Shown here: one piece after another, positions 13,445-17,428 of the stretch
Layout: each line of letters starts with the position of its first letter
Numbering within the stretch: position 1 is the first letter of the stretch
DNA from: Patescibacteria group bacterium
GTDB lineage: Bacteria > Patescibacteriota > Saccharimonadia > Saccharimonadales > DATIHS01
Reading direction: 5' to 3'
DNA: 30,445 nucleotides
NCBI GenBank assembly: GCA_035480475.1
Contig: DATIHS010000016.1
Location: forward strand, 1 to 30,445
Notes under the pieces: generated by a model
What the model saw: the letters and a program-made list of their open reading frames with translations, nothing else
The model's database searches: none
What the model was told of the DNA's origin: nothing
Made by a program: the position numbers and the translations under genes

Positions 13445-13451
13445 ATGGTGA
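13445..13451 (+). repeat. att core ATGGTGA (left junction)
   Basis: Identical to 17387-17393; opens a 34-codon frame that is in frame with the recombinase after circularisation. Confidence 0.8.
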
Positions 13452-13549
13452 ACTATGTGAAGTCGAAATTGAACGCAATCTGTACTGAACTACTAGAAGT
13501 ATACAGCTACATGAGAGCAATAACAGTAGCAGAATACATCCCTGCTTAG
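13445..13549 (+). other. Detached 3' segment of the recombinase gene (MVNYVKSKLNAICTELLEVYSYMRAITVAEYIPA*)
   Basis: Open 35-codon frame starting exactly at the att core and ending 16 nt before the convergent stop at 13566. Confidence 0.7.
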
Positions 13550-13565
13550 AGTAGAACTATATAAG

Positions 13566-14102
13566 TTATTGAATCTGTCTAAGCAATTCCTGGTATGTAT
13601 CTATCGGGCTTCCTTCTTTAATTTGAATATGTATTTGATTAGGACGATTAGGTAACGCAGCTTCCATGTGTTCATAGAGCTGTGTAATTCTCGGAGTGTC
13701 ATCATTCGTCAATGGCGGCAAGCCAGCTTCGCCCCAAGTGCCACGATTTAATAATCTTTGGATTGCGTGGTCTTTATGGGTAGCTAAATAAAACTCATGA
13801 AACACCGCACCACCATTCGTAGCAATTTGTTCTAACTCTGCAACTTCCTCTGCGTTTGTAACGAGATAAGGCACGATAACATCATGGCCTAATTTGATTG
13901 CAACTCTTAGCATGTCTTTTGTTAATGCAAAAACGAGGTCACGTGCTTCGTCTTCATGGTCCAGCCAGTCGCCAATATTAATTATGAGCTGGTCGCCCTC
14001 AATAACCATTGCAAGTGGATGATTATCTACATACATACGTGCGATAGTTGTTTTACCTGAGCCAGCAAAACCATTTAACAAGATTACTTTTGGATTATTC
14101 AT
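13566..14102 (-). CDS. P-loop small-molecule/nucleotide kinase-like protein (AAA_33 / CPT-TmrB-like)
   Basis: VILLNGFAGSGKTT Walker A, IEGD, lid motif QRLLNRG; 178 aa. Confidence 0.8.
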   Translation of the reverse strand: MNNPKVILLNGFAGSGKTTIARMYVDNHPLAMVIEGDQLIINIGDWLDHEDEARDLVFALTKDMLRVAIKLGHDVIVPYLVTNAEEVAELEQIATNGGAVFHEFYLATHKDHAIQRLLNRGTWGEAGLPPLTNDDTPRITQLYEHMEAALPNRPNQIHIQIKEGSPIDTYQELLRQIQ

Positions 14103-14159
14103 TACATTATAGTAACAGATACAAGTACTGCTATTACGATGAATCAGGGTTTAGTAGGA

Positions 14160-14972
14160 CTACTGTTCCGAGCTGGGTGACGATGATTCTAATGGCGGTA
14201 ACTTAATAGAACCATCGAGTAGTCCCTTCAGATACGGCTTGAAGCGTACTGGGATGGTTTCATCCCTTTGTTCTTCGGGGACATGCACCAATGTCCAGCC
14301 TTCATCCATCACTTTTTCGCCTAAATATGCGAAATCTTCTTCGATAGCTTGCCAGACATTATCAAATATCATTCGTACATCTACAGGGTTATCTGGGTCG
14401 TGTTTCTCATTACGCCTATCTCCACTATGTAGAGCATTTCGATGTGAGGCTAGCATATTCTGCCATAGCTTGCGGTCCGTTCTAGCTACATCCACAAACT
14501 CCGAGGCGTTCGGATGTTCTTCAACAAATTTCTTAGCACCCTTTTCAAACTTCTTATCATCCTGGAATATAAAACCTATCTCAAAACCAAGCTCCTTCAT
14601 AAATAGCTGGAAACGATCCTTATATGCCCACCAAATCGAATTATAGAAGGCTACGTATTCTGCCTGCTGGTCAAATGTCGGAAGCTGATGAAAGCTCTTA
14701 GTATCTTCGATTCGACGCAAGTGAATACAGGCAATCTCTAACTGTTCAACGATCCTATCAAAGCGAAAATCTATCTCATCGCTATTTGGTAGTTGTATGT
14801 ACTTTAGGATGTCTTTAATCTGAATCCACACACGAGGTACAAAAAGCTCCTCAGTGCCAAAGTTAGAAGCTAGCTTAAGCGTAAAACCAGGCGGCAGATT
14901 GCCCGTGTACATTTTACCCTTCGGGCTGTTTTGCTTCTGTCGCTTTGGTTTAGTTCGCTTTTTCTTAGACAT
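14160..14972 (-). CDS. Hypothetical alpha-helical protein, possibly HEPN-like
   Basis: Long ORF. Start placed at ATG 14972 because TATAAT (14980-14985) lies 7 nt upstream. Contains W..ML.SHRNALH (RNxxH). Confidence 0.75.
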   Translation of the reverse strand: MSKKKRTKPKRQKQNSPKGKMYTGNLPPGFTLKLASNFGTEELFVPRVWIQIKDILKYIQLPNSDEIDFRFDRIVEQLEIACIHLRRIEDTKSFHQLPTFDQQAEYVAFYNSIWWAYKDRFQLFMKELGFEIGFIFQDDKKFEKGAKKFVEEHPNASEFVDVARTDRKLWQNMLASHRNALHSGDRRNEKHDPDNPVDVRMIFDNVWQAIEEDFAYLGEKVMDEGWTLVHVPEEQRDETIPVRFKPYLKGLLDGSIKLPPLESSSPSSEQ

Positions 14973-15033
14973 AGTCACCATTATATTATCTGACCCCAAA
15001 TTACTTAAAAAATAGCATACGCAACTGGTTAAG

Positions 15034-15267
15034 CTACCAGACTGTCAGAAAACTCATCATCAGCTTATTCCGATTGCTTTTAGCTGTTTCCATTTTTTCG
15101 GCGAACACAGATTCGTGATTTAGGTAGAAGTAATATGTCTGACGACTTATTCCTGCATATCTACAAGCGTCCTTAATATTAGAGTTGGTTTGTATTGCAG
15201 CTATTAGCTTAGTCATGACTTTAGCGTCTACTTTTAATGGTCTGCCTACGGCATTTTTCACAGTCAT
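15034..15267 (-). CDS. Small HTH protein resembling the N-terminus of phage terminase small subunits
   Basis: GRPLKVD...KLIAAI...NIKDACRYAGISRQTYY; SD AGGAG upstream. Confidence 0.7.
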   Translation of the reverse strand: MTVKNAVGRPLKVDAKVMTKLIAAIQTNSNIKDACRYAGISRQTYYFYLNHESVFAEKMETAKSNRNKLMMSFLTVW

Positions 15268-15477
15268 AAAAACTCCTGTATATTCTTACATTCCTACTAA
15301 TAATTATGACAGGTGGGCATTTTCTCAACTTCCATACATAAACCCATCCTAGACGATCCTAGAGCGTCACAGAGGGTATTCCTGTTCATGCCTTACATCG
15401 AGTATATGACTTGCGACAGTACATATATTATTTTCAGATATAATACGGTACTAACGGTATTTTATGCCGCAATTAAT

Positions 15478-15506
15478 TTGCTTTTTGTTAAACATAAGCG
15501 TATAAT
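15478..15506 (+). promoter_or_regulatory. Sigma70-type promoter TTGCTT-17-TATAAT for the small ORF and recombinase
   Basis: Hexamers at 15478-15483 and 15501-15506. Confidence 0.6.
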
Positions 15507-15680
15507 TATAGGCAGAGTAATCGTTGGGGTTCTCTCCTAGTCGCCACGCTATCATGTCTCATGAAAGTGTATGACCCAGCAGATGTAGCTAAGACCGTGG
15601 TTTTACTAAGACCACACAAGTAATTACAAATTAACTTGCTCTTCGTTTGGCGACTAAGACATCCAACGAAAGGGACAGAA

Positions 15681-15896
15681 GTGTCCAAAATATTAACTGT
15701 ACCTGCTGAGCAGCAGGTTATTTCCGTTAAGGAAGCACGGAAACTTTTAGGACAAAAAGCAAAAACACTAACCAACAAAGAACTCGAAATACTTATCCAA
15801 GAAACAGAAACAGTGGTGAGACTCTCTATACGAACTTTTATTAGTTCGAAAAACATTAAAAATAGTGGTAATATTGAAGGAGCAACATCACTATGA
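15681..15896 (+). CDS. Small hypothetical protein (71 aa), candidate recombination directionality factor
   Basis: GTG at 15681 after AAGGGA; ISVKEARKLLG...LTNKELEILI helical motif; stop overlaps the recombinase start (ATGA). Confidence 0.65.
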   Translation: MSKILTVPAEQQVISVKEARKLLGQKAKTLTNKELEILIQETETVVRLSIRTFISSKNIKNSGNIEGATSL

Positions 15897-17428
15897 AAAA
15901 AGCAGTCATTTATCTTCGAGTCTCAACAACAAAACAAGTAGAGGGTGCAAGCCTAGACACTCAACAAAAGCTGTGTCAGGACTGGGCTTCACGCAATGAT
16001 GTTCTGGTTAAGAAAATCTACCATGATGACGGTGTCTCGGCTAAAACCCTAGACCGCCCCGCTATGAAAGAAATGCTTGCATATCTTGAAGAGAACAAGG
16101 GACATATACAGTACTTGATTACATACCAAACTGACCGCCTGTCCCGCAATGCAACTGACTTCTTCGCACTTCGTACTCTACTTTTTAAGTTAGGAGTGCA
16201 ATATAAAAACATCAATTCAGGTATTGAAGATAGTGACAACGAGGAACTAATTCAGAACTTAGAGGCAGTACTTGCCCAGCATGATAATAAGACTAAATCC
16301 ACTCGTGTTAAGCACAATATGAAGATTCATGCGAAAGAGGGCTATCGCATGAGCAAAGCACCTCTCGGCCTTAAAAACGTGAGAGATGTACTGGATAAGT
16401 CCACACTTGCACCAGTAGAGGGTATTGCCGATAAGGTAGCCGATATACTTGAGGCATATTCAACAGGCACACACACCATAGCTAGTCTGATTAAAATGTG
16501 CGAAATCATTGGTCTAAAGTCTGCAAAAGGCAAGCCTATGCAGATACAGGCAATCAGCAAAATGTTACGTAACCCAATATATGCAGGGCTTGAAATGAGT
16601 AAGCACACAGAGGGTCAACTGATCCCCTCAAAATTCAAAGGGATAATCACTCAAGCAACCTTTCACCGTAACCAAGAGCTCCTGAGAAGCAATAAGAACA
16701 CGGCTGCTACCTACAAGAAGAACAATCCTGAATTTCCGCTACGACGCTTCATGCTTTGTTCTGAGTGCAATAAACCATTAACAGGTAGTGCTCCAGTTGG
16801 TGGCTCTGGTAAGCGTTCTCCACGCTATCACTGCTCAAGATGCCACTTACCCTCCGTGCAATCAGGAGAGCTACATGAACAGTTCCTACACCTGCTTGCG
16901 TCATTAAAACCTGATCCAGATATGGAAAAGTTCCTAAAAGAGATAATAGTGCGTGTCTGGCGTGATGAAACAAAAACTCTAGGCAACAAACAGAAGAAGC
17001 TTCATAAGGCTTTAGAAGAGCTCACTGAGCGAAGAAACAAGGTTGTTGAAATGCTTGTTGCAGGTCAGATAACAGTAGAAGAAAAGCAAGAGCAAGTTGC
17101 GAGGATTAAGGAAGAGTCTGACAATGTACAGAACGATCTAGCCAGTGTAGGGTCACTAGCTGAACTAAAAACTGATGCAATTGATTATGCTATTCGTTTT
17201 ATGTCGAACGCACCAAGAATATGGAGTAATGCCTCGATAGAACATCAAATCATCTACCAACGTCTAGTATTCCCAGAAGGCATAGAATACGAGCTTGCTA
17301 CAAATAAATTTCGAACGCCCAAATTAAGTGCTCTTTACACCTTAGCAAACATGAAAAAAGACGCCGAAGCGTCTAATTCGTATGCTATGGTGATCCCAAG
17401 GGGAATCGAACCCCTGTTGCCGGGATGA
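15893..17428 (+). CDS. Large serine recombinase; last 13 aa encoded by antisense tRNA-Glu
   Basis: AVIYLRVST catalytic Ser, DRLSRN, LRNPIYAG, CSEC...YHCSRC zinc ribbon, coiled coil. Confidence 0.95.
   Translation: MKKAVIYLRVSTTKQVEGASLDTQQKLCQDWASRNDVLVKKIYHDDGVSAKTLDRPAMKEMLAYLEENKGHIQYLITYQTDRLSRNATDFFALRTLLFKLGVQYKNINSGIEDSDNEELIQNLEAVLAQHDNKTKSTRVKHNMKIHAKEGYRMSKAPLGLKNVRDVLDKSTLAPVEGIADKVADILEAYSTGTHTIASLIKMCEIIGLKSAKGKPMQIQAISKMLRNPIYAGLEMSKHTEGQLIPSKFKGIITQATFHRNQELLRSNKNTAATYKKNNPEFPLRRFMLCSECNKPLTGSAPVGGSGKRSPRYHCSRCHLPSVQSGELHEQFLHLLASLKPDPDMEKFLKEIIVRVWRDETKTLGNKQKKLHKALEELTERRNKVVEMLVAGQITVEEKQEQVARIKEESDNVQNDLASVGSLAELKTDAIDYAIRFMSNAPRIWSNASIEHQIIYQRLVFPEGIEYELATNKFRTPKLSALYTLANMKKDAEASNSYAMVIPRGIEPLLPG
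17387..17393 (+). repeat. att core ATGGTGA (right junction, tRNA CCA end)
   Basis: Identical to 13445-13451; encodes Met499-Val500 of the recombinase. Confidence 0.8.

Follow-up and report, generated by a model that had tools for sequence, protein, structure and literature searches.

Serine-family integrases have been described as not known to take tRNA genes as their targets, and the only integrases named as extending across their own attachment site (attP), those of Mx8 and SSV, are both tyrosine enzymes (PMC4383910). In Mx8, integration within the int gene gives it a new 3′ end and altered properties (PMC6070905). Here we describe a mobile element of ~3.9 kb, at positions 13446-17393 of a 30,445-nucleotide stretch of DNA (the window) from an ultra-small Saccharibacteria-type bacterium of the candidate phyla radiation (CPR), with a genome of 0.69 Mb and relatives that are Saccharibacteria metagenome-assembled genomes (MAGs). 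The element is bounded by TGGTGA, lies between a tRNA-Glu gene and the pyruvate kinase gene (pyk), and carries attP inside the open reading frame (ORF) of its large serine recombinase (LSR). As in Mx8 IntP/IntX and SSV1-type systems, a crossover inside the integrase gene changes its product. Those enzymes, however, are tyrosine recombinases with long core identities, whereas here a serine recombinase works with a 6-bp identity and what is exchanged is a single short helix that follows the final DNA-binding domain.

The recombinase has the domain order of SPbeta SprA, Bxb1, phiC31 and Listeria LI/A118, with catalytic, recombinase and zinc-ribbon domains and an inserted coiled coil. Unlike phage LSRs, it targets the 3′ end of a tRNA or transfer-messenger RNA (tmRNA) gene, its attP lies in the integrase ORF so that the C-terminus depends on DNA state, and the left arm of attP doubles as a terminator. 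In being small and tRNA-adjacent, with variable cargo, a restored tRNA and tandem accumulation, the elements resemble Islander-type islands and tycheposons. In contrast, nearly all of those islands rely on tyrosine integrases (for the tycheposon type, 910 of 937 elements); a minority of tycheposon-type elements carry LSRs, and the attP-in-LSR layout is not described there. Those islands also leave a long displaced tRNA fragment, whereas here the intact tRNA-Glu stands at the right end and the piece displaced to the other end is only 6 nt (TCACCA), too short for the Islander definition. The original prediction, made from the letters of this locus, noted that the layout is not known as a characterized mechanism for large serine recombinases; we likewise found no published description of an attP-in-ORF layout for serine integrases, in a search outside of which most subscription journals lay.

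An integrated element at the terminal six bases of a tRNA-Glu gene

The boundaries of the element and the host features beside them are as follows.

13418-13439, minus strand: original host terminator of the tRNA-Glu trailer (hairpin of -9.4 kcal/mol plus T-run, 24 nt after the core)
13446-13451, no strand assigned: attL core TGGTGA, the only block identical at both junctions in 20/20 tRNA-Glu elements
17388-17393, no strand assigned: attR core TGGTGA, the same identity block as the attL core
17388-17462, minus strand: intact tRNA-Glu(UUC) with CCA encoded, the target gene and B′ arm of attB (ARAGORN; Rfam RF00005, 63.9 bits)

The original prediction placed a 7-bp core, ATGGTGA, at recombinase codons 499-501 and again 3,942 bp upstream. 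These coordinates hold: the heptamer occurs at 13445-13451 and 17387-17393 with exactly that spacing. By itself the heptamer shows no excess in the window (4 matches against 3.4 expected), so the two copies have no statistical weight alone and we drew their significance from context, namely the tRNA end, a step in GC content, the terminator, empty sites and homologous junctions.

The core coincides with the final 6 nt of the tRNA-Glu gene (TCACCA, the reverse complement of TGGTGA). GC content is ~40% inside the element and ~50% in its flanks, and the step falls exactly between the two core copies. To the left lies pyk, followed by pgk and tim; to the right, past tRNA-Glu, are a PKD/LPxTG-type surface protein gene and then a histidine kinase gene. 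A host tRNA-type terminator stands just left of attL, now displaced 3.9 kb from tRNA-Glu, and equivalent hairpins occur at the left flank of 14 other elements. To define the boundaries across the family we used 20 tRNA-Glu elements of 3.3-11.2 kb with both ends paired; the block of identity between attL and attR is exactly TGGTGA in every one of them.

An empty site among relatives, which the original prediction expected of a mobile element, is present in L183 and L184, the closest available relatives (pyk 77% identical). Their gene order, histidine kinase, PKD protein, tRNA-Glu, 56 bp and pyk-pgk-tim, preserves synteny on both sides, and the tRNA-pyk adjacency also occurs in a more distant genome (G029; L008). 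We found no same-species empty site: the host pyk has no exact match on record and the nearest is only 79% identical, so the empty site comes from relatives rather than from the same species.

We considered whether the two ATGGTGA copies might have arisen by chance, in a region that is a fixed island without mobility. The abundance of the heptamer in the window is what such a chance repeat would give, but the site is empty in relatives, 20 elements have identical junction architecture, and contigs in the attP form and circular contigs exist (described below). We rejected this reading, whose probability we regard as negligible, on those three grounds. We conclude that 13446-17393 is an integrated element that entered the last six bases of the tRNA-Glu gene by site-specific recombination.

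One recombinase gene with two C-termini

The features that concern the recombinase and its attachment site are listed here.

15893-17428, plus strand: LSR, 511 aa in the integrated form, with its element-encoded part ending at V500 (17392); assigned by domains
15636-15896, plus strand: small ORF with a stop codon that overlaps the start of the LSR (ATGA); a homologous ORF lies upstream of the LSR in relatives
13448-13549, plus strand: tail ORF for the C-terminus (V, 32 residues and TAG), detached here and continuous with the LSR in the joined form alone; the homologous tail is contiguous with the LSR in contig L015
17343-17393, plus strand: left (P) arm of attP, in LSR codons ~484-500 (20-element consensus)
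13446-13476, plus strand: right (P′) arm of attP, in detached-tail codons 1-10 (20-element consensus)
17354-17374, minus strand: element-supplied intrinsic terminator for the tRNA, antisense in the LSR coding sequence (independent terminator scan)

Only serine-recombinase domains were found in the LSR: PF00239 (Resolvase, 8.6e-26), PF07508 (Recombinase, 1e-8) and a zinc ribbon (PF13408) that scores 19.5 bits, under the 25.3 cut-off. The tyrosine recombinase catalytic domain gave no match. Across 39 homologues, residues R9, V10, S11 and T12 of the catalytic domain are invariant, as are C289 and C292 of the zinc ribbon, in which C314 and C317 show conservation of at least 90%. In an AlphaFold2 model of a relative (P0018; predicted local distance difference test score, pLDDT, of 87), helices 342-389 and 395-438 form the coiled-coil insertion, and the best fold matches of the model are the SPbeta, Bxb1 and phiC31 integrases.

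Codons 499-501 of the LSR carry the core, and its final 11 codons run antisense to tRNA-Glu(UUC). When 17393 is joined to 13452, the frame stays open through V and 32 further residues to a TAG at 13547-13549, which yields a protein of 532 aa; the tail ORF stops 17 bp short of the convergent gene at 13566. Both lengths, the in-frame junction and the stop just before the convergent gene agree with what had been predicted. Because attP lies inside the recombinase ORF, integration parts the tail from the gene, and insertion swaps a 32-residue end helix for 11 antisense-tRNA residues.

At the left junction of the window, 13445-13450 reads ATG GTG, with AGGTGA, derived from the host terminator stem, 8 nt upstream. 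In this host the detached tail thus has a possible start codon and a ribosome-binding-like sequence of its own. The ATG is missing in most other elements and its presence here is probably a coincidence.

To examine the anatomy of the sites we counted positions from the T of TGGTGA. On the tRNA side, attB has the T-loop box TCGAAC at +18 to +23. In the consensus of the 20 elements, the right arm of attP has TCGAA at +17 to +21 and T(G/T)GAAC at +23 to +28, with a pairwise difference of 0.014 in the close subfamily; the left arm has AAAAAAGAC-CA at -34 to -23, including GACCCA at -28 to -23, an imperfect mirror of the right-arm box. The whole of attP lies inside the recombinase ORF. Like those of phage LSRs, attP and attB here are short and have few bases in common. 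Under the published rule for LSRs, attP and attB are told apart by a 5-bp register shift of the outer motif (PMC11722253), and the present sites match it, with the T-loop-like box 5 bp further out in attP than in attB, as is the zinc-ribbon motif of phage LSRs. Judged from this geometry, the zinc-ribbon domain would read the tRNA T-loop box TCGAAC in attB and its look-alike T(G/T)GAAC in attP. Dyad symmetry, and it alone, points to the TG that opens TGGTGA (the terminal CA of the tRNA) as the probable crossover dinucleotide.

The left arm of attP also encodes a terminator on the opposite strand, with a fold z-score of -3.9. When trailers were folded singly, a hairpin and T-run appeared 28 nt after the CCA in 25 of 26 relatives, built from at least five unrelated stem sequences. 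RNAalifold on the 26 trailers returned no consensus structure, the hairpins differing in sequence and register. By sequence and predicted folding, the element thus replaces the tRNA terminator that it displaces. The 50 bp around the core hold three overlapping codes: protein, recombination site and antisense terminator.

The same arrangement extends across a large family. Hundreds of LSR homologues are in the database, most of them exactly 511 aa and ending in antisense-tRNA residues, and in ~60 of the 79 genome loci the LSR gene and a minus-strand tRNA gene overlap at their 3′ ends. Close relatives target tRNA-Glu, and relatives at ~30% identity target Arg, Leu, Met, Ala, Lys and Ser tRNAs; a few of the latter come from MAGs labelled Verrucomicrobiota, Terriglobales, actinobacterium and Gammaproteobacteria.

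Joined or circular forms in relatives, also anticipated by the original prediction, were found on three contigs. In L015, a 76%-identical recombinase of 532 aa runs straight into its cognate tail, and the homologue of window 15716-17362 continues directly into the homologue of 13446-13566. This order of genes arises only from a circle or a head-to-tail tandem. The contig starts in a restriction nuclease gene and ends in a methylase gene, so that a restriction-modification cargo is split across its ends; having no terminal overlap and ending in two different genes, it was rejected as a whole circle. L178 and L179 are closed circles: the two ends of each contig overlap, by 30 and 23 nt, and ORFs become complete once these ends are joined. 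Neither has a tRNA, and their LSRs end in a helix-type tail, whereas their integrated cousins end in antisense tRNA. These junctions bear out the claim that the recombinase gene spans the crossover and that its C-terminus differs by state. Both circles (L178 1-5931 and L179 1-5995, ~5.9 kb) come from high-GC organisms; each also encodes a small resolvase-type serine recombinase (233-241 aa), with no recognizable replication gene listed.

Several loci hold tandem arrays at one tRNA (L036 4311-11576, L016 1767-7405, L050 1680-7272, L038, and L100 2570-7010). Within them the reading frame of the upstream LSR crosses TGGTGA and enters the following element's tail, creating chimeric long forms. We accordingly rejected the view that homologues of 522-552 aa are all circle forms, since several are upstream members of tandems. 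The arrays are explained if the regenerated tRNA together with the resident left arm makes a usable new target. A second type of tail (T-S-L-G-E-N-W-N-T-L-L-E-D-L-E-R-F and similar) also occurs in arrays, in elements for which no recombinase of their own was found; in L016 a convergent Fic gene comes after it.

The detached tail and the direction of recombination

The left end of every paired element has TGGTG followed by an in-frame open tail of 28-51 codons. Across 22 lineages and 25 codons the tail frame contains no stops, against 80 and 36 in the other two frames. Past the attP arm, entropy by codon position follows the order 2 < 1 < 3. For codons 11-33 in 15 distinct close copies from different hosts, nonsynonymous divergence (dN) is 0.103 and synonymous divergence (dS) 0.531, a dN/dS of ~0.19 that indicates purifying selection; in the same copies similarity is lost ~10 nt past the tail stop, where the host flank is unrelated. 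Conservation of the detached frame in homologues, which had been predicted, is thus borne out.

The peptide also has a regular pattern. Hydrophobic residues at positions 4, 8, 11, 15, 18, 22 and 25 make a heptad repeat with 3-4-3-4 spacing, which is kept from 93% to ~28% LSR identity and across five tRNA targets. A tail of the form S-W-N-x-I...E-L...W...L-L-R/K also stands detached at tRNA-Arg, Leu, Met and Ala elements. AlphaFold2 places a helix at residues 496-528 of P0018 (pLDDT 63-72), in line with the amphipathic-looking helix of the original prediction.

These data bear on a neutral account, in which attP and the tRNA terminator overlap the gene's 3′ end through compactness and the tail is functionless read-through conserved as cis-acting DNA. 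Codons 2-10 suit it, being nearly invariant as DNA (the 0.014 pairwise difference given above) and containing the T-loop-like box, and the ~10 nt past the stop are conserved as well. Tail codons 2-10, which include a conserved W/L-N pair, are the right arm of attP, and their conservation is therefore partly a DNA-level constraint. Beyond the attP arm the account fails to explain a dN/dS of 0.19, the third codon position being the most variable, the lack of stops in 22 lineages, or the persistence of the heptad pattern over that range of identity and targets. We consider it quite improbable. The tail is instead, on this sequence evidence, a real and selected part of the protein, predicted to form an amphipathic helix of about three heptads.

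What the helix does is less certain; the original prediction suggested that it could set directionality, stability or activity. The tail can be selected only when fused, in a circle or tandem, where the task of the enzyme is integration; the helix is therefore likely to act on the integration side. Near-identical recombinase modules in many hosts further imply that single integrated copies excise with the tail-less enzyme. By this logic it is integration, rather than excision, that probably requires the helix. To the whole explanation, an integrated element with attP inside the LSR ORF, a selected tail and a helix most likely specific to integration, we assign a probability of about 0.72.

The main rival is a lock-in like that of Mx8. 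Here the helix would be required for overall folding, for stability or for full activity; the gene, once integrated, would specify a crippled enzyme, and the swap would simply stabilize the inserted state, with excision rare or carried out by enzyme from other copies. The altered int product of Mx8 (PMC6070905) offers a precedent. The tandem arrays (L036, L016, L050, L038 and L100) show copies that are fixed or dependent on help in trans, as do derivatives with the LSR deleted that keep both junctions (L103 and L096), and 3 of ~35 close integrated LSR genes are frameshifted. Against it, recombinase modules 82-95% identical occur in many hosts with different cargo, which implies frequent excision from single-copy states, and most integrated LSR genes remain intact at 511 aa. 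Weighing these, we think a lock-in unlikely.

Among the derivatives, L103 (1-3755) retains an intact tail at its left junction, together with ~100 nt from the end of the LSR gene and tRNA-Glu, but has lost the LSR body; judging from its sequence, this copy could be non-autonomous yet open to excision in trans. L096 (2939-9000) and L099 (5504-11953) have a tail beside pyk, followed by cargo (DUF4145- and APH-like genes) and a helix-turn-helix (HTH) gene, and no LSR was found within 6-9 kb.

How an integration-specific helix might act is suggested by analogy with SPbeta, in which the helix of a recombination directionality factor (RDF) packs between DBD2 and the coiled-coil hinge (PMC11722253). 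That source also cites work, its reference 49, implicating the extreme C-terminus of SprA in directionality. Both cases resemble the present one, in that a far LSR C-terminus influences direction or a hinge helix switches it; they involve a fixed C-terminus or an engineered fusion, whereas here recombination itself adds or removes the helix, with a putative effect on direction. The small ORF is coupled to LSR translation in both DNA states, and its expression therefore cannot set direction. In the model that we prefer, still speculative, the helix would bind in cis at the hinge between zinc ribbon and coiled coil, where directionality factors act. There it would override the small co-translated protein and commit the circle-borne enzyme to integration, and the same small factor would turn the helix-less, chromosome-borne enzyme into an excisionase. 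Recombination would thereby toggle the enzyme, and DNA state would set direction in place of regulated RDF expression. We regard this cis-acting scheme as possible but doubtful.

Several points weigh against the explanation we favor. The mobility of the window copy itself is read from empty sites and joined forms in relatives. L015 documents a joined junction only and could be a head-to-tail tandem, and the LSRs of the closed circles L178 and L179 are only 31-34% identical and come from other phyla. Confidence in the modeled tail helix is only moderate (the pLDDT of 63-72), dN/dS for codons 11-26 across the whole family is only ~0.6-0.7 and saturated, and the conserved W/L-N pair is no evidence of peptide function. 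Finally, the product of the small ORF is a candidate directionality factor or regulator, its RDF role being a guess.

Gene content and a second element at tmRNA

The remaining genes of the element are all on the minus strand.

13566-14102, minus strand: cargo, a 178-aa P-loop kinase (AAA_33/zeta-toxin-like; Pfam PF13671, 8e-11, and PF06414, 6e-8)
14160-14999, minus strand: cargo, a 279-aa protein with no family match (Pfam, PHROGs, PADLOC and NCBIfam empty)
15034-15267, minus strand: 77-aa HTH protein, divergent from the integrase operon (PHROG 4102, terminase-small-subunit-like HTH, 7e-12)

The kinase has a PHROG match to polynucleotide kinase, and all its NCBIfam matches fall far under cut-off. 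Homologues of the 77-aa HTH protein, a probable regulator, are present in 7 of the 20 tRNA-Glu elements. The small ORF at 15636-15896 has no family match; in at least 14 of the 20 elements the LSR is immediately preceded by a homologous ORF of 58-104 aa, with a common motif, KEARKLLG...LT.EEL. Scans of all five ORFs against Pfam, PHROGs, PADLOC and NCBIfam found no capsid, terminase, conjugation, relaxase or replication genes, and the sole match of that kind is the similarity of the 77-aa protein to a terminase-small-subunit HTH. The description of a minimal element targeting the tRNA CCA end, free of replication, conjugation and capsid genes, therefore stands. The element consists of cargo and a conserved module of HTH protein, small ORF and LSR; across elements the small ORF and recombinase are constant, the HTH protein is frequent and the cargo varies.

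The window holds another LSR gene at 841-2490, encoding 549 aa with 23% identity to the first. It ends ...NKKDLRIDRKSLMV and then runs antisense into a tmRNA gene (2366-2746, minus strand; Rfam RF00023, 67.9 bits; missed by ARAGORN). Both LSRs have the same terminal ...KKD...SLMV motif, and an antisense hairpin and T-run lie in the last codons of the second. The left end of this tmRNA element is beyond the contig start. We conclude that 841-2746 is a second element of the same design.

Scans of viral contigs returned no close relative, the nearest being at most 33% identical. Two IMG/VR contigs encode LSRs at 28-32% identity whose 3′ ends lie over tRNA-Phe and tRNA-His (L105 1343-2968 and L111 10001-11572), so that the layout reaches further tRNA species and possibly prophages. 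The C-terminal residues of two unrelated family members, P0012 (85% identical) and L043 10001-11554 (33%), are M-V-S-P-Q-V-(F/L)-F, and the junction there has no called tRNA. In genome G010, a 15-nt copy of a tRNA-Glu 3′ end lies ~130 bp downstream of tRNA-Glu (L012, ~2190-2345); it belongs to a different variant, ending GGTCACCA, and could be the scar of another kind of tRNA-targeting element.

This family contradicts the textbook split in which tyrosine integrases use tRNA genes and serine integrases use protein-coding genes. Among the open problems of large serine integrases, control of directionality is the central one, and it accounts for their value as genome-writing tools; here nature provides two enzyme forms, one for each DNA state, whose sole difference is a C-terminal helix. 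The enzymes appear to read the T-loop and the CCA end, which points to landing sites in every genome; if true, such universal T-loop reading would explain hops between tRNA species. The cargo of the family includes restriction-modification systems, kinases, Fic and resistance-like genes, and these 3-11 kb elements look like a main vehicle shuttling cargo between CPR hosts.

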